Assembly (NCBI GenBank): GCA_013216135.1
Contig: JABSOS010000016.1
Span: forward strand, 6,718-70,717
Length of the DNA: 64,000 nt
Direction of reading: 5' to 3'
Source: Candidatus Caenarcanales bacterium
Lineage (GTDB): Bacteria > Cyanobacteriota > Vampirovibrionia > LMEP-6097
Below the pieces are notes generated by a model. The model had not been told where the DNA came from and did not search any database. It saw only the letters and a list, made by a program, of their open reading frames with translations. Position 1 is the stretch's first letter. Each line of letters starts with the position of its first letter. Shown here in pieces: positions 12,629 to 60,798 of this stretch. A program made the position numbers and the translations under genes.

Positions 12629-12639
12629 GAGGTTTTGAG

Positions 12640-13086
12640 ATGATAGCAGGCACAAGAAGAGTTTTTGTTAGATGGATAACTGGAGTTTTTGCTGCTCTAT
12701 GGGCAGGGATGGCAAGTTACCCTTTCTTTAGATATTTAATTTCAGGTACTAAGAAAAAACAAGCAGGTGAAGAATTAGTAACCTCAATTTCACTTGGGAG
12801 CTCTGAAGAGTTTTTACCGGGAGCTTCTAAGAATTTCAAATTTGGTTCTGCTCCTGCTCTATTAGTAAGATCAGAAGATGGTGCTTTTCACGCTTATAAT
12901 GCTATCTGCACTCACTTAGGCTGTACAGTTCAATACAATGAAGAGAAAAAGAACATCTGGTGCGCTTGTCATGGTGGTGTCTATGACACAGCTTCAGGTA
13001 AAAACTTAGCTGGACCTCCACCTAAGCCATTAAAGGCTCTAAACGTGGAAGTTAAAGAGGGAGAGATTATTGTTTCAAGGGCATAG
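12640..13086 (+). CDS. petA: Rieske [2Fe-2S] protein
   Basis: 'CTHLGC' and 'CACHGG' Rieske boxes; Tat-like 'GTRRVFV' N-terminus plus TM anchor. Confidence 0.85.
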   Translation: MIAGTRRVFVRWITGVFAALWAGMASYPFFRYLISGTKKKQAGEELVTSISLGSSEEFLPGASKNFKFGSAPALLVRSEDGAFHAYNAICTHLGCTVQYNEEKKNIWCACHGGVYDTASGKNLAGPPPKPLKALNVEVKEGEIIVSRA

Positions 13087-13112
13087 AAAAACAAAGAACT
13101 TAGGCAATTTCT

Positions 13113-13216
13113 CAAATTCAAGGCTTTTGAGGATGAAAAAGCGCAGTGTAATGGAATTACATGAGCATTTTGAAGACGAGAATAACGCAGAAGTTGAGAA
13201 AGTGAGTAAGTTCTAA
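13113..13216 (+). repeat. intergenic module, copy 1 (Rieske / cyt b spacer)
   Basis: about 75-80% nucleotide identity to 14345-14450 (CAA[A/G]TTCAAGGCTT ... TTTTGAAG.[C/G]GAG.ATAACGCAGAA.TTG.G.AAGTGAGTAAG). Confidence 0.6.
13133..13216 (+). CDS. possible 27-aa small ORF inside the duplicated intergenic module (MKKRSVMELHEHFEDENNAEVEKVSKF)
   Basis: ATG-to-TAA ORF; its C-terminal half is conserved with the sORF at 14306; could instead be a structured RNA. Confidence 0.25.
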   Translation: MKKRSVMELHEHFEDENNAEVEKVSKF

Positions 13217-13220
13217 AAAG

Positions 13221-14306: not shown

Positions 14307-14467
14307 TGAAACCTTTTGATAAAACTAGGGCTTGCGCACTTGCACAAGTTCAAGGCTTGCGAAAGCTGAAAAACCGCAGTTTACTTTTTGTAAATGAGGA
14401 TTTTGAAGCTGAGCATAACGCAGAAATTGGGCAAGTGAGTAAGCCCTATGAGGAGTTTGAATTATGA
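14306..14467 (+). CDS. 53-aa small ORF in intergenic module copy 2, translationally coupled on both sides
   Basis: ATG overlaps the cyt b stop (TAATG); its TGA overlaps the next ATG (ATGA); the C-terminus '...EDFEAEHNAEIGQVSK' is conserved with the 13133 sORF. Confidence 0.4.
   Translation: MKPFDKTRACALAQVQGLRKLKNRSLLFVNEDFEAEHNAEIGQVSKPYEEFEL
14345..14450 (+). repeat. intergenic module, copy 2 (cyt b / CydA-cyt c spacer)
   Basis: paralogous to 13113-13216; a small hairpin at the equivalent position carries compensatory changes (TGTAAT..ATTACA vs TTTAC..GTAAA). Confidence 0.6.
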
Positions 14468-15828: not shown

Positions 15829-15869
15829 CACCTTGGCATTATCTTAACCGAAGTGCTAGTATATCTTTT

Positions 15870-16931
15870 GTGTCACTAAGAAGAATTAATCCTTTTTCAC
15901 AAAAGACCATAACTCAAGAAGAAAGAAGGAAGCTCATTGAACAAGATAAGCTAATACCTCTTAGACAAGGGGTTTCTTTAAAAAGATCTTTAATTAATCT
16001 AAAATTATTAGCACTAGATGAACAGATAGAAGCCCCAGAAAGTCATAAACATTTAGGTTATTTGAAATCTATAACTGGAATCAATACCGAAAATAAGGAT
16101 CTCTGGAAGAAACTAGGTATCTATGAAAAAAATAAGATCAAAACATATTTCATTAATAATTTATCTCAAAAAGAACTATTAACTTTAAAGGAAATTTTTA
16201 ATACGGTCTATAAACACAAGAAGCATGCGGTTTGGCATTTTTTTTCACTTATATTAAATGATAAAAACGACACTATAAAAAATAAAATTAAAGCATTTGA
16301 AAGAACCAAAGAAAAAGAACTGGAACACAAAAAGCTTTCTTCAGAAATCTTAAATTTAGTGAATAATAAATTTAATTTAAACTTATCTCAATTTGAATAT
16401 CATTTACTAGATCCTTTTAGAGGAGAAGGAAATAAAATTAACAGATCACACAGAGAAATATTAAAACTAATAAAACCTCAGCACCCCGTTGTTGAAAAGA
16501 AATTTTCATTTTTAATTCCTTACTATAAACATAATCACCAAGTAACAGTAAGAAGTTCACCAGGTACTAATAAATTAAGATTCAAAGTAAGAGATTTAGA
16601 AACTAATCTTCAGCATTATTTCTTCAAGACACCAGACCGTGATGAATCCTTAGATTATATATTTGATATAGACTTAGAAACTGGTGATTTTGATATAGTT
16701 GAAGACAACTCAGCTAAAGTTAAAAAGCCAAAAAGTGATCGAGAAAAAATTGGTTTAGCAATGAGTTTCATATTTAGAACTTTACATGGTGGTTATTCCC
16801 CTGGACTGGGGCAAGGTCCCGTAATTTCGGAAAAGGATATAGACGGAAATGTTAATCACCGACAAACTCTTTATACTGGACTAAATGATAATGAAATCGA
16901 AGCATTAGGCATTCTTGGTGAACTTGCTTAA
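15870..16931 (+). CDS. hypothetical protein (lineage-specific, effector-like)
   Basis: 353 aa ORF, K/N-rich, no recognisable motif. Confidence 0.45.
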   Translation: MSLRRINPFSQKTITQEERRKLIEQDKLIPLRQGVSLKRSLINLKLLALDEQIEAPESHKHLGYLKSITGINTENKDLWKKLGIYEKNKIKTYFINNLSQKELLTLKEIFNTVYKHKKHAVWHFFSLILNDKNDTIKNKIKAFERTKEKELEHKKLSSEILNLVNNKFNLNLSQFEYHLLDPFRGEGNKINRSHREILKLIKPQHPVVEKKFSFLIPYYKHNHQVTVRSSPGTNKLRFKVRDLETNLQHYFFKTPDRDESLDYIFDIDLETGDFDIVEDNSAKVKKPKSDREKIGLAMSFIFRTLHGGYSPGLGQGPVISEKDIDGNVNHRQTLYTGLNDNEIEALGILGELA

Positions 16932-16959
16932 TCTTTGGTATATATTTTCATTTTTTATA

Positions 16960-17211
16960 TTAAGACTCTTGATCTAACTTATATTTCTCAAGCTTTTTAT
17001 GCTTAGTTAATCTACCAGAAACTCTTTTACGCCATAATCTAAAGCTTCCAGCTTTAAGTTCACGGCGCATTAGCATGATAACTTCAGCTTCGCTGAAACC
17101 CATACTTTCATGAATTTCTTCAAAGCTTGTCTTATCATCCCAAGCAGCTTTAATGATTTTATTAATCTGCTCTTGCTTTAAAGCTCTGATTTTTTTTAAG
17201 CTTTTGGACAT
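16960..17211 (-). CDS. small conserved protein, TIGR03643/DUF2805-like
   Basis: 83 aa; motif 'AAWDDKTSFEEI...GFSEAEVIMLMRRELKAGSFRLWRKRVSGRLTKH' recalled for that family. Confidence 0.45.
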   Translation of the reverse strand: MSKSLKKIRALKQEQINKIIKAAWDDKTSFEEIHESMGFSEAEVIMLMRRELKAGSFRLWRKRVSGRLTKHKKLEKYKLDQES

Positions 17212-17404
17212 ATGGAAATCTTACCCAAAATTACCTTAAACTTAGTTCAAAGATGCCCAAAAGTAAGATTAACGGTTCAAATAAAGGAAAGAGGCTTTTA
17301 AAAATATAAATCGCAATAAAGTGAATTTGATAATTTAATATCAAATACTTGATTTTCAAAGCTTATATGTATTTCAATATAAACAATCTTCAAAGGAGTA
17401 TATT

Positions 17405-17599
17405 ATGAATTCAATCAATAGTCCCAAAAGTGCTGTAAAACCCTTTATTCGTTCAGTATATCAAACAGGACCTAGCCCTGATAAACCTACAGGTACAAAA
17501 ATAGTTGATACTCCTACTAATTCAATAGTACCCAGTCCAAATATTACGAATGGAGATGTAGCTGTTAAAGACACCACTGGAAGAGCCTTAGCCTCATAA
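17405..17599 (+). CDS. small Pro/Thr/Ser-rich protein (64 aa)
   Basis: strong SD (AAAGGAG) 8 nt upstream; followed by a terminator hairpin. Confidence 0.4.
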   Translation: MNSINSPKSAVKPFIRSVYQTGPSPDKPTGTKIVDTPTNSIVPSPNITNGDVAVKDTTGRALAS

Positions 17600-43349: not shown

Positions 43350-46193
43350 ATGCATTTATATGACTTAGTCAGGGAAACGAAAGAATCACATGGTCAAAAA
43401 AGACCAGTAAATCTTTTAGACTATATGGCAAGGGATGAAGTCCCACCATCAAATATTCAAACAGATAAACTGGTTTCTAAGGAAATTTACCCAGCAAGTA
43501 CTGGATATACAGATCGAAATCAAATACATAGAAATTTAAATTACTCTCAGTTATTCAATAACTTAGAAGAAAAATTTAGCCATCTGTTACCAGCCCTCAG
43601 TCATAACAATAAAATTAGATCTAAAGACTTTCAAGGGCGTCTTCATGCTTTTTTTGAAAGTTATAAAAAAGTGCAAGATTTTTTCCAATTCCGCTTTAAA
43701 GAAGTTAAAGAAAGAGAGGAGTTACTAGAAAAATATAAAAATATTAGCTCAACAGAGGAAAAAGAGCGAATGCAAGCCATGTTCAAGCACCAAGTAGTTT
43801 CACTTGAAGCAATGAATAAAGTTTTATTTGAGATGATTCAAAAACTTGAACAAGCAAATAAAAAACTTACTTTGACAAGTGCTCAAGCTCACAAATTTAA
43901 AGATAGAACAAATAAACTTGTTCAAAATAGTCAAAAAAGTAAACAAGCTGAACAATATCAAGAGTTAATCAATAACCTCAAAGAAACTTCATCAAAAAAA
44001 GAAGAAAAAGATATTAAGAAGAAAATCAAAGCTCACCAAATAGGTAAAAATGCAATTGGTACATTTAAAAGCCTTTACAACAAATCAGTAAACTTGAATA
44101 ATGAAGAAAATTTTGGAGTATTTTCTGATGATCTAGCAAAGGCACAAAAACAAGTCTTAAAGAATTTAGCAAAGATCTTCTCATCAAAAATATCTGCTGG
44201 GTCAGATGATGATCCATATTTAGCAAACATCCTTGATGGTGAGAGATTTAAAGGAGTTTATAAACAGATACTAGATGTCTATGAACTTGCTATGGAAATA
44301 GCAATGGACAAAACAAATCCTTATGAGAGACCTAATTTTTCAGATAAATTAGTTGAATATGAAACAGTGGGTAAATCCTGGAGTGAGTTAGATAGTGAGG
44401 ATAAGGAGATTATTAATAACTATATTAAGAGATTTCAACTCACAAAATCAGAGAAAGACTTTCTTCCAGAAGGCTATGTAAAAGATCAAGAATTAAAGCA
44501 CAAAAAACAAGAAAGGAAAAAAAGAGATTTAATTTTTGCAACAGGTTACAGAACAGATCTTGTTGATGATGTCCTACCTAAATTACTTAGGAAAGATTTC
44601 AAAACTACCGTTAATATAGTGAAGGACTATGTCGAATGGCTCTATATGAATAATGTAGAACCAAATCACAAGAAGATGCCACCAGACTCAACCATTCCGA
44701 GCAATCTTAGAGTACTTGGAATTCCTAATCTTATTGAAGCTCAAAAGTCGTACTTTCCTTTTTTACCATTCAGTATGGGTGGGGTTAATGAAGACAGAGC
44801 CTTAATGACAGCTCAACTTTTAGATCAATTAACTAATAACAAGGATGTGGATAAAATTTCCAAATACTTAGAGCAAAAAGAAATTCAATTTAATAACATT
44901 GATGAGGAATTTAAAGATACAGCAAATTTTGTGGTGGAAAAAATTATCAACCCAATTTCACGTGGAGCATTTGATATCAGTGGTACTGATCTCTTAATGA
45001 TAGTTAAGGTTCCGAAAGACAAATCGAAAAAAATAAGAGATATAGATTCTGAAGATGAGTCTCTAATCGAACACAGACTTATTAAAATCCAAGTGAAAAG
45101 TTCTGAACTTGCTGTATTAATGTCAGAGAAATATAAGTATAAAGATACCCCCGCTTACCCAGGGAATCAAATCAAAGCAGATCCTAGGGAAAGAATGCAC
45201 CTCGGTGATAGGAAGTTTTCTAAATTCATAAGCGGCACTCAAGCAACATACACAGAAGAAGAAGTTGCTGAGAACTTTAGAAGAGCTGACCCTGATTTAC
45301 TATTAAAAATGATCCGTTCTGTAAACAGAAATATCGAACGTAATTTTCTTAAAATTAATAGTGAGCAAATGCAGGCTTTAGATCAGCTCATACAAGACCC
45401 TGCTTTATTTTCAGCAAAAGATCATATGATTCAAGCAAAAGTTCATGGTGCTGAAATTAAGCTGATGGAATTATTTAAAGAGCAAGGCTTACTTTCAGAT
45501 CTTGCCCTAGCCTATCAGAAATATCCAGCAAAATTAAAAGAATCACTCGAAAACCCTTACCCCAAAAATATTGATTCAGAATTTCTTGAAAAATTTCACA
45601 GATCTGCAGATATTTTAACTAGCTATTTATCTGAAAGACTTGGTCGAGATCCTGATTTCGAGTTAAGTCACGCTAATAAAAGTCTATTATTTAATGAAAT
45701 GAAAAAAGCTAAATTGGGTGAAGATTTCATTAAACCAATAATTTTTGTAATGCTAAAGTCTTTCCCAGAGAACCATCAATTTACAACAGAGGAAATGCAG
45801 TCTATAACTAACCATTATAAAGGTGTAGTTCATAACTGGAGAAGAGACTTAAGAGCTAATTTTTCAGTAAAAGATCAAGTCCTAGAGAATTACCTATCTG
45901 AAATTCTAGAAGTCACAAGACCAGAAATACAAGGTCCAGAAAAGCAAGGTTTAATGGAAGAGTTATTGACTGATAAATATCTAAAAAATATTTTCAACCC
46001 ACACTTCTTTTATTATTTAGGTACTGATCATGCAAGTGACCCTAATAATATTTTAAGCAAACTAGAACAGATGGGAAAACGTTTCAAAACACCTTTTGAG
46101 ACACCTCCTGCTAACTTAAATTTTAATTTTAGTAATAATGCAGCAGCTTCTATCCTCAATCCCAGGCGGGAAGAATTTGCAAATGCAGCCTAA
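43350..46193 (+). CDS. large hypothetical protein (947 aa), effector-like
   Basis: 18 bp after typA; helical, K/E-rich, no known motif. Confidence 0.5.
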   Translation: MHLYDLVRETKESHGQKRPVNLLDYMARDEVPPSNIQTDKLVSKEIYPASTGYTDRNQIHRNLNYSQLFNNLEEKFSHLLPALSHNNKIRSKDFQGRLHAFFESYKKVQDFFQFRFKEVKEREELLEKYKNISSTEEKERMQAMFKHQVVSLEAMNKVLFEMIQKLEQANKKLTLTSAQAHKFKDRTNKLVQNSQKSKQAEQYQELINNLKETSSKKEEKDIKKKIKAHQIGKNAIGTFKSLYNKSVNLNNEENFGVFSDDLAKAQKQVLKNLAKIFSSKISAGSDDDPYLANILDGERFKGVYKQILDVYELAMEIAMDKTNPYERPNFSDKLVEYETVGKSWSELDSEDKEIINNYIKRFQLTKSEKDFLPEGYVKDQELKHKKQERKKRDLIFATGYRTDLVDDVLPKLLRKDFKTTVNIVKDYVEWLYMNNVEPNHKKMPPDSTIPSNLRVLGIPNLIEAQKSYFPFLPFSMGGVNEDRALMTAQLLDQLTNNKDVDKISKYLEQKEIQFNNIDEEFKDTANFVVEKIINPISRGAFDISGTDLLMIVKVPKDKSKKIRDIDSEDESLIEHRLIKIQVKSSELAVLMSEKYKYKDTPAYPGNQIKADPRERMHLGDRKFSKFISGTQATYTEEEVAENFRRADPDLLLKMIRSVNRNIERNFLKINSEQMQALDQLIQDPALFSAKDHMIQAKVHGAEIKLMELFKEQGLLSDLALAYQKYPAKLKESLENPYPKNIDSEFLEKFHRSADILTSYLSERLGRDPDFELSHANKSLLFNEMKKAKLGEDFIKPIIFVMLKSFPENHQFTTEEMQSITNHYKGVVHNWRRDLRANFSVKDQVLENYLSEILEVTRPEIQGPEKQGLMEELLTDKYLKNIFNPHFFYYLGTDHASDPNNILSKLEQMGKRFKTPFETPPANLNFNFSNNAAASILNPRREEFANAA

Positions 46194-48286
46194 ACCATCT
46201 CTCTAAACTTCTCTTCAGAAAGCACTTCAACACCTAAGTCTTGAGCCTTAGTAAGCTTAGAACCAGCGTCGTCACCACAAAGTAAATATGAAGTCTTTTT
46301 GGAGACACTCGAGCTTACCTTGCCGCCATTATCCTTAATAATCTTCTCAAAGTACGACCTGCTCTCAGACAGTGTTCCAGTAATCACGAAAGTCATTCCT
46401 GCAAACTTATCAGAAAGTTCACGCTTCACTAATTCTTTAAAATCAAAGCCTAAATCAATATAATCTCGCTTAACCTGAACATAAATCTCTGATTCAAAAA
46501 AATGTTTTAAAGAGTATAAAATCTTCTCCCCAAGACCATCTAACTTTAATAAATCCACACCATGATTTCCTAGAACTTCTTTTTCAAGCTCAAAAAGGCT
46601 TGGGTAAACAGATGCTATTAACTCAGAAACATTTAAACCTACATGTTTAATTCCTAAAGCGTGTAAGAATCTATGAAAAGGTATTTCACGACTCTTCTCT
46701 AAAGCAGCTAACAAATTATTAACAGACTTTTCTGCCATACGCTCTAGAGGAGCTAAATCATCAAACTTTAGTTTATAAAGATCAAAAGGATTTTTAATTA
46801 ACTTCTCAGAGAGTAGTTGTTCTACTACTGCTGGACCTAGTCCAGCAATATCCATAGCTTTTTTCGATGCCCAGTGCTCTATTCTTCTTTGAATCTGCGC
46901 TGCACAACCTACGATATTAGGGCATCTAAGAATAGTATCTTCTTGCTCTAGAGCAGTGCCGCAGACAGGACAATGTCCAGGACGAGTAACATCAACAAGT
47001 TCTATAGTTTCACCATTAACACTTTGTCTACGTTTAGCTTCATCCACTTTAATAATCTCTGGAATGATCTCTCCAGCTTTACGTACTAAGACAAAGTCTC
47101 CGACTTTAACACCAAGTCTATCTACCTGATCAAAGTTATGAATTGTAGCTCTTTTAACTGTAGTCCCCGCCAGTAAAACTGGCTCTAAGTTAGCTACTGG
47201 AGTAATAGCACCTGTTCTACCGACTTCCATATCCACAGACAGGACATGAGTCAAAGCTTCTTCAGCACTGAATTTAAGAGCAGTCGCCCAACGTGGAGCT
47301 TTGCTTGTTTCGCCTAAAGTCTTTTGTAGATCTAATTGATTAACTTTAACTACAGCACCATCAATTTCAAAATCTAATGAATCTTTTTTCTCTTGCCATT
47401 CTTGATAAAGACTTATTACTTCCTCTATATTTTTGCAGAGATGGTTATGCTCTTTATTAACATGGAAACCCAGCTTCTCAAGGTACTCCAAAGAATTAAA
47501 ATGTTCATTAATTGAATTTGAAGAAGACTTAACTTGCTCAGTTTCAGCATAGCCTAAATTATTATAAGGAAAGTAATTATAAAAGATCGCATCTAAATTA
47601 CGCGCAGCTGTAATCTTTGGGTCAAGCTGCCTTAAAGCACCAGAAGCTGTATTACGAGGATTAGCATAAAGATCTAAACCTTCTTTTTCACGCTCAGCAT
47701 TGATTTTTTTAAAATCTTCTTTCGGTAAATAAACTTCGCCACGAATTGAAAAATCTGACTTTTCCAGTAGCTCAAGAGGAATCTCTTTAGGCAAAGACTT
47801 TATAGTCATTAAGTTAGCCGTAACATCTTCACCAACTTTCCCATTACCACGAGTAGCAGCTCGGTAGAGTTTACCATTTTTATAATCAAGCGCAATACTC
47901 AAACCATCAATCTTCAGTTCGAAAACATACTCACGAGGAGTTTCCTCGCCTATAATTCTATTAATTCTATTTTCCCAGTCTCTGATGTCCTCTTCCCCAA
48001 AGGCATTATCGAGGCTCATCATTTTTTCAAGATGATAAGTTTTAGTAAAACTAGTCTGATAAACTCCAGAACCGATCGTTTTAGTGATACTATCCGCTTC
48101 AACTAAATCTGGATGCTCTGTTTCTAAAGCTTTAAGCTCTTCTAAGTGAGCGTCATAGACTGCATCTTCAACCTCACTTATATTTTCAATATAGTACTTG
48201 TGACTCCAGTGTTTTAATTTACTTTGTAATTCTGAATATTTTTCTTTTAACAAACTTAGATCTTGCACATTTACACTCATATTCAT
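46190..48286 (-). CDS. ligA: NAD-dependent DNA ligase LigA
   Basis: adenylation 'KIDGLS' (KxDG), Zn-finger 'CPVCGT...CPN..C', HhH and BRCT regions; 698 aa. Confidence 0.9.
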   Translation of the reverse strand: MNMSVNVQDLSLLKEKYSELQSKLKHWSHKYYIENISEVEDAVYDAHLEELKALETEHPDLVEADSITKTIGSGVYQTSFTKTYHLEKMMSLDNAFGEEDIRDWENRINRIIGEETPREYVFELKIDGLSIALDYKNGKLYRAATRGNGKVGEDVTANLMTIKSLPKEIPLELLEKSDFSIRGEVYLPKEDFKKINAEREKEGLDLYANPRNTASGALRQLDPKITAARNLDAIFYNYFPYNNLGYAETEQVKSSSNSINEHFNSLEYLEKLGFHVNKEHNHLCKNIEEVISLYQEWQEKKDSLDFEIDGAVVKVNQLDLQKTLGETSKAPRWATALKFSAEEALTHVLSVDMEVGRTGAITPVANLEPVLLAGTTVKRATIHNFDQVDRLGVKVGDFVLVRKAGEIIPEIIKVDEAKRRQSVNGETIELVDVTRPGHCPVCGTALEQEDTILRCPNIVGCAAQIQRRIEHWASKKAMDIAGLGPAVVEQLLSEKLIKNPFDLYKLKFDDLAPLERMAEKSVNNLLAALEKSREIPFHRFLHALGIKHVGLNVSELIASVYPSLFELEKEVLGNHGVDLLKLDGLGEKILYSLKHFFESEIYVQVKRDYIDLGFDFKELVKRELSDKFAGMTFVITGTLSESRSYFEKIIKDNGGKVSSSVSKKTSYLLCGDDAGSKLTKAQDLGVEVLSEEKFREMV

Positions 48287-48301: not shown

Positions 48302-49207
48302 TTACGTAAGTAAATTAAATACCACTCCAAGAAAACTTATCACCAAAACCGGAAACACTGTCAAAGCGACAGCTACCCGTATATCAAAAGCCTGTTTATA
48401 AACCACTAAAGTTGTAAAGTTCACACCAGGACTTGCGGTCATAAAAGCTAAAACCGAACCTAATGCAACTCCTAGATCTAAGAATTCTGCACTCATAGCA
48501 ACATCAGCCCCAGCACATAAATAAAGCGGGAAAGCTATTAAAGACATAAAGAACGGACTAACCAATTCGTTTTGTAACAGTGCACCAGCATTCGTTAAAA
48601 CAAAATCATGATTAAAGTGCATTAAACTTGCCACTAAAACTGCAAAAATTATCCACGGTAAAAACTGTAAACTAGTTTCTTTTAAATCAGACCAGATTTT
48701 CTTTAACTTAGAAACCTTAGGACCACAACATCCCTTCTTTTTCTCTTCAGTCTCTGCAAGCTTGGCTTCAATGATACCTGCAATAGCTTCACTATAAAAT
48801 AAAGAAAATAAAAGTACATTAATCACTGCAAACAGTACCGCAAAATTAAAACGCCAAAGTGTAGATTCCCAACCTAAGACACCAAGGTTCAAAATCAAAG
48901 CAGAAATACTACAAGCGTTACCAGCAAGTAAAAAGGCTAGAATAAACTTCCAATTAAGCTTTTTCTTTAAAAGCCCTATTGCAAGCGGGATCATTCCACA
49001 TGTACATATCGGTATCAAGGCTCCTAAAACAGCTGCAACAACTAATCCTAAACTTGCTTTAAATTTAGAATCTCCAATAAAGTTATTTTCAATCTTTTCA
49101 AAATAGTTATTCGGAAGATAAAGATCTATTAATGAAGAGCATATTACCGCGATTAAAAAAACCGGTAAAATTTCCAAAAGAATATGTAAAGAATGCTTTA
49201 AAAACAC
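48302..49207 (-). CDS. predicted permease, DUF318/YraQ/ArsP-like
   Basis: 8-TM protein with 'ICTCGMIP' cysteine motif typical of that family. Confidence 0.55.
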   Translation of the reverse strand: MFLKHSLHILLEILPVFLIAVICSSLIDLYLPNNYFEKIENNFIGDSKFKASLGLVVAAVLGALIPICTCGMIPLAIGLLKKKLNWKFILAFLLAGNACSISALILNLGVLGWESTLWRFNFAVLFAVINVLLFSLFYSEAIAGIIEAKLAETEEKKKGCCGPKVSKLKKIWSDLKETSLQFLPWIIFAVLVASLMHFNHDFVLTNAGALLQNELVSPFFMSLIAFPLYLCAGADVAMSAEFLDLGVALGSVLAFMTASPGVNFTTLVVYKQAFDIRVAVALTVFPVLVISFLGVVFNLLT

Positions 49208-49233: not shown

Positions 49234-50853
49234 TTAACGCTGAATTCTAAACTTGAATTTTTTCACAAGTTTAGAGCCACTTGCACTAGAAGCTTCAACC
49301 CTTAAGTTAATAAAACGTTTTTTCGTTAAAAACCTCTTCGGTAAGTTTCGATACCAAACAAGCTCATGGTCATCATTAAAGATAAAATATCTTTTCATTT
49401 TATTTAAGACTCTAAATCTTAAACCTGGAACAGGGCTATCAGTAGTGAAAGTCAAAACTGGCTCAGAGTCTGCAGTAAGAGTGGCAATAGAAATTATAGG
49501 AACAGCACCTTCATAACTAAAATCATTGCCTTCATCAAAATCTAAAAAATCATTTTCGTCATCAGAACTATTGTCATTATCGTTGTTATTTTCATCATTG
49601 CTACTATCATCATTATTGTCTTCACCAGCCTCAAGGCGATCTTCAACAGTAATAGCAAAAGTTCTTTCCAAGTAATCACCATCAGGCTCAGTAGCTCTTA
49701 CCCTAATCGAGTAAGAAGACCTAGTTTCATAATCAAATGACACAGATGCTCTAACAGTACCGATATCAGAAACTTCAAAGAATGCAGTGTCACCACCTAC
49801 TAAAGTGTAATCATAGGAAAACTTACTGTAATCACCACCGACAACATCCAAAAAACCTACTATCCACTTAGAGCTAGTCCAGTTCTCTGGAACTGTGTTG
49901 TCAGACAAAGAAATTTGCCCAGCAGCCGTGTTAGTCCCACCATTATCAGGACTTTCAGGTTCATCAGTATCATCTCTATCTTCAACAACTATAGAAAAAG
50001 TTTGTTCTAAATAGTCACCACCAGGTTCAGTAGCCCTTACCGTAACTGAATATGAGGACTTCGTTTCATAATCAAATGGCACAGATGCTCTTAAAGTACC
50101 GACACTTGAAATTTCAAAAACATCAGTATCTCCAGCGACTAAACTCAGATCATAACTAAATATACTTGCGTAATCACCACCACTAATATCAACAAAACCT
50201 ACTATCCACTTAGAGCTAGTCCAATTTTCAGGTACCCAGTTCGAGGATAAACTTAATCTTCCAGCAGCTGAATTGCTGCCACTGCTTGGAGTCTCAGGCT
50301 CAGTTTCAGGACTCGACTCATTAGGATCATCTAAAACTCTAATATTAAATGTCGATATTAAATAAGTATCATCTGATGCAGTAACTTTAACAGTTAGTGT
50401 ATATGAAGTTTGTTCTTCATAATCTAAAGGTACTTTAACCCTGATAGAGCCTACAGAAGTAATATAAAACTTAGAAGTATCTCCAGATATAATCTCAAAA
50501 TCATGGAATATAGGAAATTCACCGTCTATAGTAATAAAACCTACTATCCATTCAGAACTAGTCCAATTTTCAGGCACCCAGTCAGAACTTAACTCTAAGT
50601 TTCCGGTACCAGTTCCTGTAGTTGCAAAATTAACGATCTGAGCAGATCTAACTGCACCACAAGCAGCTTGATATCTTTGTTGATTTTCCTCTAAAAGACC
50701 TTTTTCGATATCAGCATCATGCTGAGTAATATTAAGCAGCTTTTGCTGCCTTTTAACTGATATTTCCTGATAATTACGGCTAGCAGCCTCAACATCTGTA
50801 ACTAAGAAATTACAGGCTATAAGCGCCAATATTAAGACCAAGCCTCTCAACAT
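49234..50853 (-). CDS. exported protein with three cadherin-like repeats and a poly-acidic tract
   Basis: signal peptide; three ~110-aa repeats '...SSDWVPENWTSS.WIVGF...SGDT..F.I.SVG..R..V.FDYE..SSY...V.AT..'; 'DDSSNDENNNDNDNSSDDEND'. Confidence 0.6.
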   Translation of the reverse strand: MLRGLVLILALIACNFLVTDVEAASRNYQEISVKRQQKLLNITQHDADIEKGLLEENQQRYQAACGAVRSAQIVNFATTGTGTGNLELSSDWVPENWTSSEWIVGFITIDGEFPIFHDFEIISGDTSKFYITSVGSIRVKVPLDYEEQTSYTLTVKVTASDDTYLISTFNIRVLDDPNESSPETEPETPSSGSNSAAGRLSLSSNWVPENWTSSKWIVGFVDISGGDYASIFSYDLSLVAGDTDVFEISSVGTLRASVPFDYETKSSYSVTVRATEPGGDYLEQTFSIVVEDRDDTDEPESPDNGGTNTAAGQISLSDNTVPENWTSSKWIVGFLDVVGGDYSKFSYDYTLVGGDTAFFEVSDIGTVRASVSFDYETRSSYSIRVRATEPDGDYLERTFAITVEDRLEAGEDNNDDSSNDENNNDNDNSSDDENDFLDFDEGNDFSYEGAVPIISIATLTADSEPVLTFTTDSPVPGLRFRVLNKMKRYFIFNDDHELVWYRNLPKRFLTKKRFINLRVEASSASGSKLVKKFKFRIQR

Positions 50854-50954: not shown

Positions 50955-51839
50955 TTAATGGTGATCACCGTGTACTAAATGCTCAGCGTGCTGCACAGCA
51001 CCACCAACATAAACACAGGTAAGAATAGTAAATAAGAAAGCTTGAAGCACTCCTACGAACATCTCAAAACCAAGAACTACGATAGGTAAAACCAGCGCAA
51101 CTAAACCTATAAATGTAGCAAGTAAAGTTTCACCAGCAACAGTGTTAGCAAAAAGTCGAAGTGTAAGAGTTAAAGGTCTAATAGCTAAATCCATGATCTC
51201 TATTAAGCACATTAGATTTAAACTGATACCTTTTCCTTTGTTGTAATTGATAGGTAAGAACATTTGAACGTACTTCCAGCCACCAATCATCGCACCAGAG
51301 AAGAAATAAACGACTACTACTAAAATAGCGAGTGCAGCAGGAACATTTATATCAGCACAAGTACTAGCACCATGCCAAATATGAGCAGCGTGACTAGCTA
51401 TAGATTCACCTGCACTGTGTGCAGCATGAGCAGTTTCTGTTACAGCGGCAGTATGAGCATCTACAGCATGTTCAGCGTGAGCTGTAGCTTCATGTCCATG
51501 CTCAGAAGGTAACTTTGGCCACCATGGGAAAAATTCACCCATTTTCCATGGAAGTAAACCAGCGTAGTAATTAACTAAGATAAAAATAAATATTGAACCA
51601 ATTAAAGCGATGTATTTCTCACCACGCTTACCAATCTGTTCACTAGCAAGGCTTCTAAAGAAAGAATATAAACTCTCAGAAATTAACTGTCTAGCACCAT
51701 ATTTTTCAGGGTCATTACTAAGACCAGCACTTAAAAAGATTGCTACAGCTAAGATCACAGCCATAGAACCCCACGCATAATAAAGAGTGTCTATATGAAC
51801 TGATTGACCTAAAATTTCACCTGTTATATGTTGAGTCAT
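50955..51839 (-). CDS. atpB: F-type ATPase a-subunit homolog (stand-alone) with His-rich insertions
   Basis: 'LRLFANTVAGE' (essential Arg region, cf. LRLFGNMYAGE) and 'LQAFLFTILTCVY' (cf. LQAFIFMVLTIVY); about 45-aa His/Ala-rich insert 'HGHEATAHAEHAVDAHTAA...HAAHIWHG' and C-terminal 'HAEHLVHGDHH'. Confidence 0.65.
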   Translation of the reverse strand: MTQHITGEILGQSVHIDTLYYAWGSMAVILAVAIFLSAGLSNDPEKYGARQLISESLYSFFRSLASEQIGKRGEKYIALIGSIFIFILVNYYAGLLPWKMGEFFPWWPKLPSEHGHEATAHAEHAVDAHTAAVTETAHAAHSAGESIASHAAHIWHGASTCADINVPAALAILVVVVYFFSGAMIGGWKYVQMFLPINYNKGKGISLNLMCLIEIMDLAIRPLTLTLRLFANTVAGETLLATFIGLVALVLPIVVLGFEMFVGVLQAFLFTILTCVYVGGAVQHAEHLVHGDHH

Positions 51840-51879
51840 ATCGTTTGAAAATTCCTTTTAAAGAATAAATCTTTAAAAC

Positions 51880-52911
51880 CTAAAATAGGATTATAGCAAC
51901 TAAATAAAGCAAATACAGGAATCCCATAAAAGTTAATGTCGCAGCGTGCACTTTTTTAAAAACTTTTAATGAAAATAGTAAGATTCCAGCAGAAAGTATC
52001 GATAATATTACGCAGAAAATCGTATGAGAGTCTAAATTCCATGGAGTTAAACTAACGCCGACAGCACATGGAATCGCGGATTGGAAAACCATAGCTCCAG
52101 TAATGTTACCTAAAGCTAAACCATCTTTTCCAGAACTTGCCCAAAACCAACTATTCACTTTCTCAGGAAGCTCCGTAGCTATAGGAGCAATAATTAAACT
52201 TAAAATCAGTGGACTGACATTCATTAAATGAGATGCCTTTTCGATCTCTAAAATAAATTCATGAGCAAAAACAATTATTCCAGCGAGTGATAAGAAGACT
52301 TGGAAACACATCCAGAATAAATTTGAGGGTAAGCTATAGCCTGCAACAGAGAAACTTGAGATATAGAGTTTATCGACATCATCTTCAGCGTCTTCAAACT
52401 CAGCATCAGTTCCTTCCTTTAGGGTAGTAATAAAATAAGTCGCATAAATTCCGACTAAAACTATCGCAAAGCCTACTTTAACTTGTACCTGATGGAATAA
52501 AGTCGCTGAAACAGCTACAAATAAAGCGATTAAAAAGTAAGTTAAATCTTTAGTGATGTGTTTATGACAGACTTTCAAATCTAAATTTTGACGTTTCTTA
52601 TAACTAACTAAAACTGCTAAACCTAAAAGGAACATCGCTAAAGTCGAAAGTAAAAAAGGCGCACCAATAATAGAACCTATAGCAATCTCAGTTTTAGGAT
52701 CACCGTGAGCATGAGTTCCTGCAAGGAAAATAGCGATAATCGGCAAAAGCGTCTCAGGCAAAGCAGTTCCTATAGCTGCAAGCAAGCTACCTACAACCTG
52801 CTCCCCTAATTTCAGTCTAACCCCTACATTCTCAACTGCGTTCGTAAACCATAAACAAACGATTAAAATCGCAGCTAATAAAAGTAAAATCTTACCGAAA
52901 ACTAGAAACAT
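51880..52911 (-). CDS. Ca2+/cation antiporter, CaCA (YrbG-like) family
   Basis: two alpha-repeat motifs 'GTALPE' and 'ATELPE'; 10 TM. Confidence 0.65.
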   Translation of the reverse strand: MFLVFGKILLLLAAILIVCLWFTNAVENVGVRLKLGEQVVGSLLAAIGTALPETLLPIIAIFLAGTHAHGDPKTEIAIGSIIGAPFLLSTLAMFLLGLAVLVSYKKRQNLDLKVCHKHITKDLTYFLIALFVAVSATLFHQVQVKVGFAIVLVGIYATYFITTLKEGTDAEFEDAEDDVDKLYISSFSVAGYSLPSNLFWMCFQVFLSLAGIIVFAHEFILEIEKASHLMNVSPLILSLIIAPIATELPEKVNSWFWASSGKDGLALGNITGAMVFQSAIPCAVGVSLTPWNLDSHTIFCVILSILSAGILLFSLKVFKKVHAATLTFMGFLYLLYLVAIILF

Positions 52912-52980: not shown

Positions 52981-53715
52981 TTAAGCCTTAGCTGCTGCTT
53001 CTGTAATTTCTTCTTGAACAAGCTCTTCAAAGCATTCAATTGCTACTGGGAACTTAGTTTTCACAAGCTCAATAGAAGCTTTAGCATACTGCTGAATTTC
53101 CCACTGAGCATCTTTAGGTGCTCTAAGGTTATACCAGTGCATATAATTACGTAAGTTAACAGTAGTAATAAATTCAGTATGAGAACCCACAGGAAGTACA
53201 CCACGAGCCTGCTCACGGCAAACGCCTAAATCAAGTAATTTATTATAAGCGTCTAAAGAAACCTTCCATGAATTTTCATAAATCTTAGTAGCTTCTGCTT
53301 GATTTAATTCTTCAGTAGCTTCAACACTTGCTTGTTTATTTTTCTCAGCCTGCTCTCTGAACGCCTCCGGAGTATAAATAGTGTTATCGAAAACAGTGTA
53401 TCTAGCACTAATTTCGTTAAAAACCCAGCATCTATGCTTCATCCACTGACGAGCGATATAAATAGGACACTTCACTCTAAACTTAATGGAGTTCTGTTCA
53501 AATGGAGTCCAGTGCTTATGCTTAGCTAAAAACTTAACTAGCTTTTTATCTCTAGCCTCAAACTCATCTGAAGTTTTATTATAAGAAACCCTAGCTGCAT
53601 TTACGATACTAAGATCATCACCCATAGTATCTAATAATTCAATATATCCTAATGGACCTAAATCAGCCTTAAGATCTTCAATCTTAGCTGTGGATTTCTC
53701 TAAAAGTTCTGTCAT
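52981..53715 (-). CDS. thyX: flavin-dependent thymidylate synthase ThyX
   Basis: ThyX motif 'KHRCWVFNEISARY' ([RK]HRX7S); 244 aa. Confidence 0.85.
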   Translation of the reverse strand: MTELLEKSTAKIEDLKADLGPLGYIELLDTMGDDLSIVNAARVSYNKTSDEFEARDKKLVKFLAKHKHWTPFEQNSIKFRVKCPIYIARQWMKHRCWVFNEISARYTVFDNTIYTPEAFREQAEKNKQASVEATEELNQAEATKIYENSWKVSLDAYNKLLDLGVCREQARGVLPVGSHTEFITTVNLRNYMHWYNLRAPKDAQWEIQQYAKASIELVKTKFPVAIECFEELVQEEITEAAAKA

Positions 53716-56800: not shown

Positions 56801-57136
56801 TTAAGCAGTATTATCAGATCTTGAATCTGCAGCCCTTCTATGTGGGTTAGAATTATCAGCTCTTATGTAAGCTTCTGTATTTGCTCTTGCTGTTTCCCAT
56901 GCTCTAATCTTTTCTAAATTAATCACAGCATCCATACCATAAGTAGGGTCTCCAAGCTCTAACTGCTTCATATATATATCTTCAAGCATATCAGATGCAT
57001 CTTGGACTGCATGAACACTTGAACCGAACTGAAAAGCGTGATTTGCACCCGAATTACGAATAGGTTGGACTAAATTTGCACCAACATCATAGCCTTCTAT
57101 ATTAATTCCTTTTGGTATTCCACCTGGACCAGACAT
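56801..57136 (-). CDS. small hypothetical protein (111 aa)
   Basis: part of four tightly spaced small genes upstream of surE. Confidence 0.4.
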   Translation of the reverse strand: MSGPGGIPKGINIEGYDVGANLVQPIRNSGANHAFQFGSSVHAVQDASDMLEDIYMKQLELGDPTYGMDAVINLEKIRAWETARANTEAYIRADNSNPHRRAADSRSDNTA

Positions 57137-57201
57137 AATAAATTCTCCTTGTTTATAGTTACTTAACAGAAATGTGTTAACAATAGGTTAACTAATTATA
57201 A

Positions 57202-57495
57202 CTATTGAGTTTTTGCATAATCATTCTCGATATTTACTGGTAACTCTTTACCATCTTCTGTAACCATTCTTGCTCCAGAAACAAAACCAATCCAATTAGC
57301 AGTATTTGTTGCCAATAAAGTGGCAATTGTCATAGATTTATTCGCTTCCATTGATTCGCGTGTAACAATACCGGTATCACCCGTTTCTAAAGATTTCATA
57401 GCTGCTTGCTCTGATTGATTGGCAGCCCTTTCATAGGCATAAGTACCTATATGCCTTTTACCGATATCACTTCCACCTATTGCTCCGTATCCCAT
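57202..57495 (-). CDS. small hypothetical protein (97 aa)
   Basis: as above. Confidence 0.4.
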   Translation of the reverse strand: MGYGAIGGSDIGKRHIGTYAYERAANQSEQAAMKSLETGDTGIVTRESMEANKSMTIATLLATNTANWIGFVSGARMVTEDGKELPVNIENDYAKTQ

Positions 57496-57515
57496 ATTTA
57501 TCTCCTTAATTTTAA

Positions 57516-57746
57516 TTATGCGTTAGGGTCAAGCATCCTGTTATAAACACCATTATCGGGACCAGAAATTATATGTTGCCAGTATTTAGAATCATCTGCT
57601 GCTGCTGTTTCAACGATAACATTTGCTTTAGCTAAATTTGTTGAAGCTCTAGTCAAAGCACCAAAATCATCATCTTTATGAGCCTGCACCTGGGCATATT
57701 GATTCTGTTCTTTTATGTGATTGTAATATGGTAATAGTTTTGTCAT
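57516..57746 (-). CDS. small hypothetical protein (76 aa)
   Basis: as above. Confidence 0.4.
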   Translation of the reverse strand: MTKLLPYYNHIKEQNQYAQVQAHKDDDFGALTRASTNLAKANVIVETAAADDSKYWQHIISGPDNGVYNRMLDPNA

Positions 57747-57772
57747 TAATCATTCTCCCTTTGAACTAAAAC

Positions 57773-58000
57773 CTAGACTTGTAAATTTGCGTAACCCCTT
57801 CTCATATTGAGGTAAGTCTGAGCCACCTTAGCTTTATCCGCGATAATAGTTTCAAACTTATTAAGCTCTTTGTTTAAAGTTTGAGAAGCTTGAGCTACTA
57901 TCTCTGGCGCTTGGTTCTCATCTGCTTGAACAAATTCATCATAATCCAGATTTACTTGCTGTATACCTTGGTTTACGAAATCTTCTGTTGATTGTGTCAT
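57773..58000 (-). CDS. small helical protein (75 aa), paralog of the N-terminus of the 60968 protein
   Basis: 'NQGIQQVNLDYDEFVQ' vs 'ANQQLKLDYEEFTN'. Confidence 0.45.
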   Translation of the reverse strand: MTQSTEDFVNQGIQQVNLDYDEFVQADENQAPEIVAQASQTLNKELNKFETIIADKAKVAQTYLNMRRGYANLQV

Positions 58001-58091: not shown

Positions 58092-59783
58092 TTGTTCCTT
58101 ATATATAGTATGAATCGTAGATTTGAGTCGGTTCTATTACCAAATAGTTTTATCCCCGGCTCTAAACCAAATCAATTTAATAAAACATATAGAAGATCAT
58201 CAAAGAATCAATTCGAACAGCAACGTCTAACTAGAACCACTGGTACTTTTGATGAAACCATTTTAGCAAAAGAGCCAAGCACGCCAAATCCTTTTAACTC
58301 TTTAGCTGTCAGTAGAAGAACACAAGAGCCAAGCAATGACTCTGAACCAACCACTGTTCAACCAAGAGAAAACAAATTTACCAGCTTAAGAATAAAGCGT
58401 GAACCTAGAAGCAGTAATCCTCAACCAGTAACCACTACTACAGTGGTTCAACCAAGAGAAAATAAATTTACCAGCTTAAGAATAAAGCGTGAACCTAGAA
58501 GCAATAGCCCTCAACCAACAACATCAACGACGACTTCTAGACCCAAAAATCTATTTTCAAACATCAAAGTAAATGGTAGGAACCCAGATGGAAGCCAACC
58601 TAAACCTCAAAGTGCATTTAGAAATATTACAGTAAATGGAAGGAATCCAAATACAACAAACCCTTCTGGCTCTGGAAGAAATATTTTTAATAACTTGAGA
58701 TCAAGACAAGGTTCTCAAAAAACAGCTGTAATTGATCAATTTGCAGATAAGCCACCTAATGAGTATTTAAATACAGGTGATTATAATATCGTTCAAAGAG
58801 ACTTAGAAGATACCAAGTTAAGTAATCTTAATAATCAAACTTATACAAAGTATTATAAAGACTTAATTGGCAGCGAAAAATACCAAGACTTACTAACAAG
58901 TGAACTTGCCAAAACTAAAGCTGGCAATGCAGATGAAAGAACAGCCAAACTAGGTTATTTCAGAGCTCATTTATATAAGAACCAGTTACGCAAAGCTATT
59001 TTCAATAAAGACTTGAGTCCAGGTCAAAAACGTGATAACTATGAAGTCCTAAATGATGCCCTAAATGCATCCTTAGGCACCACTGATAATGAAAACCCAC
59101 TAAATATAGAAATGCAAGAAAGAATCATTCCAGAAATGATGAAACTTATGGCTGCAGATGGTATTAAAGTAATCATCGAAGATTCATCTGGTAATAAGAC
59201 TGAACACCCAGATAATCAAGCAGATGCAAGGCAAGAATATGTATTTAAGATGGATAACAATATGTGGAGAACACAAATTGGTGACAGCTTATTCGGTAAA
59301 TATGCAGAACAGGTATTAGACCTTGCTGAGAACCCAAATTCTGAAATCAGTTATAGGGAGATGTATAGAGATGCAAATAAGGCAGAAATTACTGATTTTA
59401 CGAATAGTGTAAAAAAACTTGACGGTAAAGAAAATGAAATTATTCAAGCTTTAAAAAGTAGCTCTAGAACTCCAGACCAGAGTCAATTAATAGCAGATGC
59501 AAAAGTCAGTCTAGAAATGATGTTAAATAATCCGATGAGATACAAAGATTCAAGCACAGCTTTAGCTAATGCTAATAGTATTCTTGGTGGAGATAAAAAT
59601 GCACTTGCTGCACTTTTAGTATATTTAGTCCAAACCCCAGTCAAAGTCAAAGACTCAGAAGGTAAGACTATTGAAATTACCCAAAGTAATATTTTTGATT
59701 CTGATGATAAAGGTAATGCATACCTTAATAATCCTGAATTAAAAGCTGAATTATTAAAAAAATTAAACTCTGGCTTACTTTAA
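58092..59783 (+). CDS. repeat-containing hypothetical protein (563 aa)
   Basis: N-terminal low-complexity region with 30-aa tandem repeats 'VQPRENKFTSLRIKREPRS.(N)PQP' and 'N[IT][KT]VNGRNP' repeats; globular C-terminal half. Confidence 0.5.
   Translation: MFLIYSMNRRFESVLLPNSFIPGSKPNQFNKTYRRSSKNQFEQQRLTRTTGTFDETILAKEPSTPNPFNSLAVSRRTQEPSNDSEPTTVQPRENKFTSLRIKREPRSSNPQPVTTTTVVQPRENKFTSLRIKREPRSNSPQPTTSTTTSRPKNLFSNIKVNGRNPDGSQPKPQSAFRNITVNGRNPNTTNPSGSGRNIFNNLRSRQGSQKTAVIDQFADKPPNEYLNTGDYNIVQRDLEDTKLSNLNNQTYTKYYKDLIGSEKYQDLLTSELAKTKAGNADERTAKLGYFRAHLYKNQLRKAIFNKDLSPGQKRDNYEVLNDALNASLGTTDNENPLNIEMQERIIPEMMKLMAADGIKVIIEDSSGNKTEHPDNQADARQEYVFKMDNNMWRTQIGDSLFGKYAEQVLDLAENPNSEISYREMYRDANKAEITDFTNSVKKLDGKENEIIQALKSSSRTPDQSQLIADAKVSLEMMLNNPMRYKDSSTALANANSILGGDKNALAALLVYLVQTPVKVKDSEGKTIEITQSNIFDSDDKGNAYLNNPELKAELLKKLNSGLL
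58356..58535 (+). repeat. near-identical 90-bp tandem duplication inside the CDS
   Basis: 'GTTCAACCAAGAGAAAA[C/T]AAATTTACCAGCTTAAGAATAAAGCGTGAACCTAGAAGCA...' x2. Confidence 0.8.
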
Positions 59784-59835
59784 TTCTCTATCAAAATCAA
59801 GCAAAAACAGCTTTGTATATACATAGGAAATTATT

Positions 59836-60798
59836 ATGACAACAGACTTATTATTACAAGGTAACAACGGAAATACCCAAACTAGAGAATCAAGAAATCA
59901 ATTTGAAAAATTAAGAGTACGAAGAGAGCCTGATACTTCAACATCAGAAAAGAAATCGGAATACGATCCATTTGGTTCTCTAAGAAGAACAGAACAAAAT
60001 AACCCAAGTGGGAAAAATGGCTCGGTAGATCAAAGGTATATAGACCAAGTAGTTAATGACCCACAGTTAAAAAAGATTTTTAGCAGTGAAAGACTTGTAG
60101 AACTATATGAAAAAGAATTGGCAGATCAAGATTTAACTGCAGAAGAACAAAAAGAGCTTGATGAAGAGCTAAGTAAAAATGGTATTCATAGAGAAAGTAA
60201 GAATACTTATATAGGCTGGAGAAGGGCTACTATTAAAAGTTTAAAAACTGATGTCGATAATCCAGATGAGATTATTAAAGCGCTTGAAAAGATTTATGAC
60301 TTACCTTCTAAAGCGGCAAAAGAGGCAATCTTAAATAGAGTAAAAGCAGAATTAAAAGATTCAACAGTAATTAACAACAGTGCCTTTACTATTGATAATA
60401 TACTTTCAGAAGCAGGTTTAGATATACTTAGAGATAACCCTGAGATAGCAAGCTCAGTTGCAAAAGCTCTTAATAAAGATGCTGGCAACCAAGAATATAT
60501 TGACTCTCTTGAGAAGAAAGAAGAAGTTACATCTCGAGGTAAAATTGGAGCTTGGACTACAACATTAGCAATAGTTGGAGCTGGTATAGGAGCAGCTTTA
60601 TTAGTACCAGCAACAGGAGGAGCTAGCATAGGTGGATTTTTGGCTTTTACAGCAGCTGGGGCTGGAACTGGTGCAGCTGTAGGCTCTGTTGGTGCAGCTA
60701 CGTACGAAACAAGAGACTCAGAATCAAAATGGAACAATACCGTTTGGGAGCCTATAAAAGAAGCTCCTGGAAACCTTTGGAACAACCTGTTCGGCTAA
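59836..60798 (+). CDS. hypothetical protein with C-terminal glycine-zipper TM segment; N-terminus paralogous to 58092
   Basis: 'RNQFEKLRVRREP...DPFGSLRRTEQNNP' vs 'KNQFEQQRLTRT...NPFNSLAVSRRTQEP'; C-terminus 'AIVGAGIGAALLVPATGGASIGGFLAFTAAGAGTGAAVGSVGAA'. Confidence 0.5.
   Translation: MTTDLLLQGNNGNTQTRESRNQFEKLRVRREPDTSTSEKKSEYDPFGSLRRTEQNNPSGKNGSVDQRYIDQVVNDPQLKKIFSSERLVELYEKELADQDLTAEEQKELDEELSKNGIHRESKNTYIGWRRATIKSLKTDVDNPDEIIKALEKIYDLPSKAAKEAILNRVKAELKDSTVINNSAFTIDNILSEAGLDILRDNPEIASSVAKALNKDAGNQEYIDSLEKKEEVTSRGKIGAWTTTLAIVGAGIGAALLVPATGGASIGGFLAFTAAGAGTGAAVGSVGAATYETRDSESKWNNTVWEPIKEAPGNLWNNLFG

Follow-up and report, generated by a model that had tools for sequence, protein, structure and literature searches.

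Can the gene for the proton-channel subunit of an ATP synthase lie apart from all other genes of the enzyme and still encode an ordinary part of it? This question is raised by a 64-kb stretch of DNA (64,000 nucleotides, G+C ~34%; the window in what follows) from a contig of a Candidatus Caenarcanales bacterium, in which atpB, the gene for the F-type ATP synthase a-subunit, stands without any other atp gene and beside the gene for a cation exchanger of the CaCA (Ca2+/cation antiporter) family. A first reading of the letters by a model (the original prediction) left the choice between an atpB uniquely detached from its operon and a paralog with another function, such as an ion half-channel working with the exchanger. 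We think that the gene probably encodes the relocated, sole, and canonical a-subunit of the organism's F1Fo ATP synthase. The protein family is an ordinary one and not a new kind of transporter; the gene arrangement, shared by a whole clade, is unusual, and a hypervariable His-rich loop in the protein is new.

Identity of the a-subunit

The gene and the parts of its product that matter here are the following.

50955..51839, minus strand: atpB, F-type ATP synthase subunit a of the detached type, 294 amino acids (aa); PF00119, TIGR01131
51129..51161, minus strand: LRLFANTVAGE, residues 227–237, with the essential Arg228, Asn232, and Glu237, these three invariant across 67 sequences
51378..51515, minus strand: His/Ala/Glu-rich hypervariable loop, residues 109–154, between transmembrane helix 2 and the 'ADINVPA' helix, on the p-side
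50958..50990, minus strand: HAEHLVHGDHH C-terminal tail at the cytoplasmic end of the last helix; family consensus 'HAEHLxHDxHH'

The two open reading frames (ORFs) of the original prediction, 50955–51839 (294 aa) and 51880–52911 (343 aa), both on the minus strand, are exact. Its assignment of the first to the a-subunits, with intact defining motifs, stands as well, as the ORF, both family profiles, and residues 227–237 agree. The protein matches Pfam ATP-synt_A (PF00119) with 9e-39 and 134 bits (cut-off 33.9) over residues 23–278, nearly the whole profile, and NCBIfam TIGR01131, 'F0F1 ATP synthase subunit A', with 113.7 bits (cut-off 102.6). Subunit a of the N-ATPase, the alternate F1Fo enzyme (TIGR03306), was rejected as an assignment, with 55.6 bits against a cut-off of 302.1, and an operon of the atpDCQRBEFAG type that goes with it was not found in the window.

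Across 67 aligned members of the family, 46–96% identical to the AtpB of the window, R228, N232, E237, E259, Q266, and Y277 are invariant, the last two bounding the segment QAFLFTILTCVY (residues 266–277). The corresponding motif in the E. coli a-subunit is LRLFGNMYAGE...H...Q...Y, and by a spacing that is exactly the same the six residues are the equivalents of E. coli aR210, aN214, aE219, aH245 (a position where Glu also occurs), aQ252, and aY263.

The fold points in the same direction. The AlphaFold2 model (predicted local distance difference test, pLDDT, 65.5; predicted template modelling score, pTM, 0.59) has the six expected helices, at residues 16–37, 49–69, 71–101, 165–194, 209–244, and 251–293, with the N-terminal transmembrane helix, the amphipathic helix, the transmembrane hairpin, and the long tilted helix 5/6 hairpin of the a-subunit fold. 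The top 48 Foldseek matches of the model in the PDB are all a-subunits, with chloroplast (6vm4_a, 6fkf_a), mycobacterial, Chloroflexus, and E. coli proteins among them (template modelling scores of 0.70–0.73 on the target). Judged from its sequence and predicted fold, 50955–51839 thus encodes a genuine F-type proton-channel a-subunit with all channel residues intact.

The best match in both sequence and fold is the chloroplast/cyanobacterial subunit a (AtpI/subunit IV; 6FKF and 6VM4, chain a), the closest solved relative by sequence being the spinach chloroplast protein (6fkf_a, 2.5e-31). Both have the loop frame 'LPWK...LP.HG...DIN', the helix with Arg, Asn, and Glu, and a C-terminus ending in His. 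The window protein differs from it in a 46-aa His/Ala-rich loop in place of ~10 residues, ~15 extra aa before helix 5, a longer His tail, and a gene that is not followed by atpH/c. The tail that the original prediction had singled out is present, but it is no special feature of this protein: the 'HAEHLxHDxHH' consensus is conserved throughout the family (H284 and E286 invariant, H287 at least 90% conserved in the 67-member alignment), and it extends the His-ending C-termini of chloroplast and other a-subunits, including the typical ones of Melainabacteria (...EEH, ...KEHH).

Gene arrangement across the clade

Other atp genes were searched for with tblastn, using the atpZ-I-B-E-F-H-A-G-D-C set of Veillonella (locus L056) and the a-c-b'-b-delta-alpha-gamma set of Melainabacteria as queries, and each set found atpB alone in the window. 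A hidden Markov model (HMM) of the c-subunit, derived from 143 sequences that span many phyla and able to recover every c-subunit in control operons, gave no match at E ≤ 10 among the window ORFs of at least 40 aa. The original statement that no c, b, delta, alpha, gamma, beta, or epsilon gene is nearby is therefore upheld, and with the same two methods none was found in 16 related loci (±10 kb) either. The co-encoding of the a-subunit with other atp genes, which is usual and not obligatory, is absent at the window locus.

The detachment is not peculiar to this genome, as the word 'uniquely' in the original prediction had implied. Seventeen related loci of Melainabacteria (Vampirovibrionia) were compared over 10 kb on each side where the contig permits, and all 17 hold atpB without any other atp gene; therefore, detachment is a trait of the clade. 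A scan of genome contigs with the a-subunit alignment yielded nine Melainabacteria loci, again all detached. The homologs of the window AtpB carry the labels 'Candidatus Melainabacteria' or 'Candidatus Caenarcaniphilales'. The loci of the detached type (the window, L003–L019, L091, L094, and L222) fall into four arrangements, the first of which is that of the window, where atpB has these neighbours.

52981..53715, minus strand: ThyX, first gene of the ThyX-CaCA-atpB-ArsP_1 block (PF02511, 1.2e-52)
51880..52911, minus strand: divergent CaCA (Na_Ca_ex) cation exchanger, 343 aa (PF01699 twice, 8.8e-25)
49234..50853, minus strand: secreted repeat protein, 539 aa, with weak cadherin-like matches (PF00028, 1.2e-16)
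48302..49207, minus strand: ArsP_1-family permease (PF03773, 4.2e-38)
46190..48286, minus strand: NAD-dependent DNA ligase LigA, recognized by its Pfam domains, end of the atpB-ArsP_1-LigA run

Type 1, ThyX-CaCA-atpB-ArsP_1(-LigA), comprises the window, L003–L005, L011, L012, and L094/L095; the a-subunits of these relatives are 61–68% and their CaCA proteins 64–79% identical to those of the window. In type 2 (L008, L009/L010, L013–L016), the order is a methyltransferase, a membrane protein of 107–138 aa, atpB, ArsP_1, and LigA. Type 3 (L006/L007, L017–L019, L091), with a-subunits ~40–45% identical to that of the window, has a TPR protein, a 64–71-aa protein, a 118–135-aa membrane protein, atpB, and a convergent ABC gene. 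The fourth and more distant type, with an a-subunit of 271 aa (P0144/P0294), has atpB after rpsB-tsf (L222). The pair atpB-ArsP_1 is syntenic in 11 loci of types 1 and 2, the longer run atpB-ArsP_1-LigA in L008, L009, L014–L016, and L094, and the order ThyX-CaCA-atpB-ArsP_1 in L003, L011, L012, and L094.

Some details of the block can be added. The 539-aa protein (49234–50853), with a signal peptide and three internal repeats of ~110 aa, separates atpB from ArsP_1 only in the window lineage and is missing from that position in all related loci. The permease has a 'CTCG' motif and a 'GCCG' segment, and in relatives its stop codon overlaps or abuts the LigA start; it is weakly similar to Cu/Zn efflux transporters of the SO_0444 type (86.8 bits against a cut-off of 300). 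In the type 1 locus L094, an island with T5orf172/MUG113, YhcG, and Eco57I-like genes, likely a restriction/defence cassette, lies between ArsP_1 and LigA (11921–17594). Promoter and terminator scans around the block gave nothing above shuffled expectation.

Isolated atpB genes are familiar from the split atp loci of Helicobacter/Campylobacter and Aquifex aeolicus, where the gene of a canonical a-subunit stands apart from the rest of the Fo/F1 genes. These splits belong to different phyla and are independent events, and we know of no His-rich loop described for their a-subunits.

Operon-head genes and the CaCA exchanger

AtpZ and AtpI are the normal head of an atp operon, and the genes in this slot of types 2 and 3 resemble them. 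The small type 3 protein scores 25.6 bits with Pfam ATPase_gene1 (AtpZ, PF09527), the cut-off being 26.6. Types 2 and 3 share a family of 107–138-aa proteins, which align together and whose position and size fit AtpI, a four-helix membrane protein of ~130 aa directly 5' of atpB; six of the ten members match PF03899 (ATP-synt_I) over the full profile length, with a best E of 2e-4 and with scores below the 25.1-bit cut-off, and one of the ten matches CGL160_C. As small membrane proteins encoded just 5' of atpB, the products of the upstream genes in both types recall AtpZ/AtpI in the atp operons of Bacillus and CGL160/Atp1 in chloroplasts and cyanobacteria; they differ from these in matches that stay below the Pfam cut-offs. 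The window subclade has no such gene at the locus: no homolog of the AtpI-like genes was found in the window, and ThyX-CaCA takes their position in type 1.

The co-location with a CaCA gene described by the original prediction is real. The exchanger gene, with two Na_Ca_ex repeats, lies 40 bp upstream of atpB on the same strand, and in L003 its stop overlaps the atpB start. Its product belongs to the CaCA family by these two repeats and by GTALPE (E53) and ATELPE (E250), which are invariant in five orthologs. It is like NCX_Mj (MJ0091) and the YrbG-type exchangers in its ten-helix architecture with two alpha-repeats and their central Glu (E53, E250), and aligns with NCX_Mj over the full length (3e-7). 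It departs from them at the site residues, where Ser51, Ser210, Asn81, and Asp240 of NCX_Mj are replaced by Ala, Glu, Ser, and Gln (S51A, S210E, N81S, D240Q), all four kept in five orthologs. The GTSLPE signature and the Ser/Asn/Asp site residues of the YrbG/NCX type are not found in it, and it falls far below the profile cut-offs (TIGR00367, 64.2 bits against 179.65; PRK10734, 44.3 bits against 432). The neighbour is thus predicted to be a divergent CaCA exchanger.

Could the a-subunit serve as an ion half-channel together with this exchanger and/or the ArsP_1 permease, in a Ca2+/metal-proton module outside the ATP synthase? We consider this very improbable. The closeness of the two genes, the CaCA-atpB-ArsP_1 order kept in five species-level loci, the His-rich loop, a permease weakly like Cu/Zn efflux transporters, and the Pfam label of AtpZ as a putative Ca2+/Mg2+ transporter are all consistent with such a module. 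However, CaCA adjoins atpB only in type 1 (L003, L011, L012, and L094 besides the window), and the slot lacks it in type 2, in type 3, and in the P0144 type, where the a-subunit is equally conserved. Moreover, CaCA proteins are self-sufficient ten-helix exchangers, as the full-length alignment with NCX_Mj suggests for this one, while an a-subunit alone lacks a complete ion path, and the presence of ThyX and LigA in the same block shows that the linkage is not function-specific. The half-channel proposed in the original prediction is therefore unsupported. As CaCA adjacency is limited to type 1 and the block also includes ThyX, ArsP_1, and LigA, we read the CaCA-atpB linkage as a gene order passed on within a compact genome and not as a functional pair. 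The AtpI-like genes, with or without AtpZ, in the same slot of the sister lineages argue for the remnant of an operon head and against a CaCA/a-subunit machine.

One a-subunit gene or two

The a-subunits of Melainabacteria fall into two clearly distinct types, one encoded together with other atp genes and one detached from them. A profile search of 1.84 billion representatives gave only 18 for the window family at E ≤ 1e-30; after them in the ranked list come P0143/P0144 and then, at 148 bits, P0148 (OGI01445.1 of Melainabacteria GWF2_37_15), which revealed the typical type. The typical a-subunits (OGI01445.1; EKE03893.1, ACD genome set) come from the same organism class, form the sister clade, and have the same catalytic residues. 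They differ from the detached type (240–305 aa) in being only 29–40% identical to it, in their length of 210–233 aa without a His loop, and in their gene order: c, b', b, delta, alpha, and gamma follow the a-subunit in every locus retrieved (L092, L093, L097, L111, L223/L224), with no AtpI/AtpZ upstream. In searches with P0148 and its neighbouring c-subunit as queries, the matches listed led to typical attached operons only.

Di Rienzi et al. (PMC3787301) reported 7–8 of the 8 F-ATPase subunits in Melainabacteria genomes (supplement 2), operons with their own a-subunit in ACD20 and MEL.A1/B1/B2 (supplement 4), and beta and epsilon genes apart from the main operon. The genomes with 7–8 of 8 subunits are of the typical type. 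A side observation on the alpha subunits (loci L020–L090) is that a 'HAWAYR' motif is common to Melainabacteria and Chloroflexota and not to Veillonella (QAAAYR), and that LTRHAWAYRTMS is common to the three Melainabacteria alpha subunits examined.

In a rough neighbour-joining tree, with the chloroplast sequence serving as outgroup only, all detached types fall into a single clade; its sister is the clade of the typical Melainabacteria proteins, and the chloroplast group branches next. This pattern looks like ordinary vertical divergence.

The alternative that has to be weighed here is that genomes of the detached type possess, in addition, a regular atp operon that includes a typical a-subunit gene. 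The detached gene would then be an extra paralog with a role as an alternative stator subunit, swapped in under certain pH or metal conditions, or with another membrane role. We regard it as rather unlikely. In its favour, every Melainabacteria operon retrieved carries its own a-subunit, the identity between the two types is low, the detached proteins have lineage-specific insertions, and their genes are stably linked to transporter genes. Against it, the Arg and all residues facing the c-ring are invariant, as one would expect only of a protein that works with a c-ring; the detached copy is accompanied by AtpZ and AtpI; and the tree resembles a species tree and not an old duplication with co-occurrence.

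The distribution over contigs speaks against a paralog, too. Both types were never found on one contig, and a comparison of NCBI protein accessions gave no assembly with the two. Detached clusters occur only on contigs of up to 929,942 bp and on none longer, and a detached copy is thus lacking from the typical-operon contigs of 2.08 Mb, 853 kb, and 728 kb; a typical a or c gene was absent from the 930-kb and 482-kb detached-type contigs among the matches listed. No flanking gene is common to the typical-operon and the detached loci. The tetranucleotide composition of typical operons also differs from that of the window lineage (r = 0.88–0.91, against 0.97–0.99 within the lineage). One apparent co-occurrence, a c-subunit match and a detached a-subunit each on a contig of 73,623 bp, was rejected, the two being different contigs. 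The supplements of the Vampirovibrio paper give no a-subunit gene positions.

A bolder form of the same idea would have two a-subunit genes in some Melainabacteria, the detached one with the His loop being an alternative stator that re-tunes the proton inlet to pH, Ca2+, or transition metals or, less likely, acts outside the ATP synthase. The detached gene would then be accompanied either by AtpI/AtpZ or by a CaCA exchanger together with a permease of the metal type. In our opinion, this is unlikely.

We return to a single relocated gene as the probable state of affairs. The window itself indicates an organism that needs a complete enzyme, as three genes lie in a row on the plus strand.

12640–13086, plus strand: Rieske protein
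13221–14306, plus strand: cytochrome b
14464–15828, plus strand: cytochrome bd subunit-I-like gene

The ORFs on either side of them (11531–12628 and 15870–16931) have no Pfam match. With a Rieske protein, a cytochrome b, and a cytochrome bd-like oxidase, the organism would respire and make a proton-motive force, and therefore need a complete ATP synthase.

Several points weigh against the gene being the only one. An atp operon without atpB was never recovered, and those of Melainabacteria that were retrieved have an a-subunit gene without exception. The c, alpha, and beta genes of detached-type genomes were not recovered, the c-subunit probe covering the best 50 candidates. A scan of metagenome DNA with the alpha signature 'YRT.SLLLRRPPGREA' gave, among the matches listed, mostly other phyla and three Melainabacteria-like loci, none of them informative. 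The non-co-occurrence is statistically weak: assuming genomes of ~2.5 Mb, we estimate a ~0.16 chance that no overlap would be seen were a typical operon present in every genome. Finally, the identity to the typical type is only 29–40%.

The history that we propose is as follows. In an ancestor of the Melainabacteria group, the atp1 operon would have broken directly after atpB, with the operon head (AtpZ/AtpI-atpB) kept in one place and the c-b'-b-delta-alpha-gamma genes presumably elsewhere in the genome without an a-subunit gene. In the window subclade, the AtpI gene would later have been replaced by the ThyX-CaCA pair, and atpB is probably co-transcribed with CaCA, ArsP_1, and LigA for no other reason than the compactness of the genome. 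The product would be a functional stator a-subunit that forms, with the c-ring, two proton half-channels using Arg228, Asn232, Glu237, Glu259, and Gln266.

The histidine-rich loop

The insert of roughly 45 aa that the original prediction noted before the 'ADINVPA' helix is real. It has 46 residues between 'WWP' and 'WHGAS', of which 14 are Ala, nine His, and five Glu, and by homology to chloroplast subunit a it lies on the p-side. Aligned to 6fkf, it takes the place of 'QLPHGELAAP', a short loop on the lumenal side (p-side) that connects membrane helices 2 and 3, and maps between 'LLPWKII' and 'QLPHGELAAPTNDINTT' of the chloroplast protein. The refuting condition named in the original prediction, an insertion common to all a-subunits of the clade, is borne out in part: a His-containing loop is common in the clade, but its length is not, as it varies continuously from 2 to 59 aa (median 14) in the 67 family members.

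The loop also changes quickly. Between the window protein and P0001 (96% identical), 13% of the loop positions differ against 2% elsewhere, a divergence ~6 times faster than that of the rest of the protein, and in relatives 91% identical overall the loop length already differs by up to 18 residues. Residues 110–159 have a pLDDT below 50 and no secondary structure in the AlphaFold model. Since its length is variable, its divergence fast, and its pLDDT low, we think that the insert is a hypervariable and probably disordered loop on the periplasmic face, close to where protons enter. A tandem repeat in the DNA as the source of the loop was looked for and not found.

Whether such a loop is more than neutral low-complexity sequence is another matter. 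It might be adaptive and, at the predicted periplasmic entrance, either collect protons as an antenna or bind Zn/Ni/Cu as a sensor, which we put forward as a possible and still doubtful role. Nine His in 46 residues are far above the 1.7% His of the window background (P = 7e-8), the loop almost always contains His in types 1 and 2, with at least two in nearly all, and its 'H-x-W-H-G' end is conserved at a site that, by homology to 6fkf, lies beside the entry half-channel. Similar His/Ala/Glu-rich extensions, such as 'AEHGAHAVNAASEVAHGAGEAAHHAEGG', occur at the N-termini of unrelated a-subunits from other lineages (P0145, P0149, P0152); they resemble the window loop in composition and may be a recurrent p-side feature of Fo. 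On the other hand, the wide range of lengths among close relatives, the sixfold divergence, and the predicted disorder do not favour such a role, and the loop is missing in type 3, which has the 7-aa 'KLDNGEH' in its place. For the single relocated a-subunit that we favour, the loop, which expands and contracts quickly, would at most tune local proton or metal binding, without adding a new domain.

Other features of the window

Outside the atpB block, the window holds further features of interest.

354–1959: Amt-P-II pair
2882–4282 and 4307–6955, plus strand: DAB-type inorganic-carbon uptake module, with a Proton_antipo_M subunit and DabA (776 bits)
6968–7318, plus strand: P-II-like protein after the DAB-type module
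56801–58000, minus strand, and 58092–60798, plus strand: four small ORFs (75–111 aa) without Pfam match, conserved in L001 and L002, adjoined by two large ORFs

The DAB-type module is notable in a non-photosynthetic relative of the cyanobacteria. The first of the two large ORFs beside the small ones has tandem 'VQPRENKFTSLRIKREPRS' repeats and no family match.

Implications

If the gene is indeed the relocated and only a-subunit gene, the finding is mostly a point of annotation: one branch of the Vampirovibrionia has its atpB away from the atp operon. Tools that score pathway completeness still count such a detached atpB. It would also provide a dated, lineage-specific example of an operon that broke exactly at the a/c boundary, and a detached a-subunit that keeps AtpI/AtpZ offers a natural test of whether the role of AtpI is tied to the a-subunit. 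Besides, the hypervariable His/Ala-rich loop at the periplasmic mouth of the proton path, together with the similar N-terminal extensions in other phyla, may offer an inexpensive experimental approach to a long-discussed idea, that of proton antennae at the surface or of a metal-sensitive Fo.

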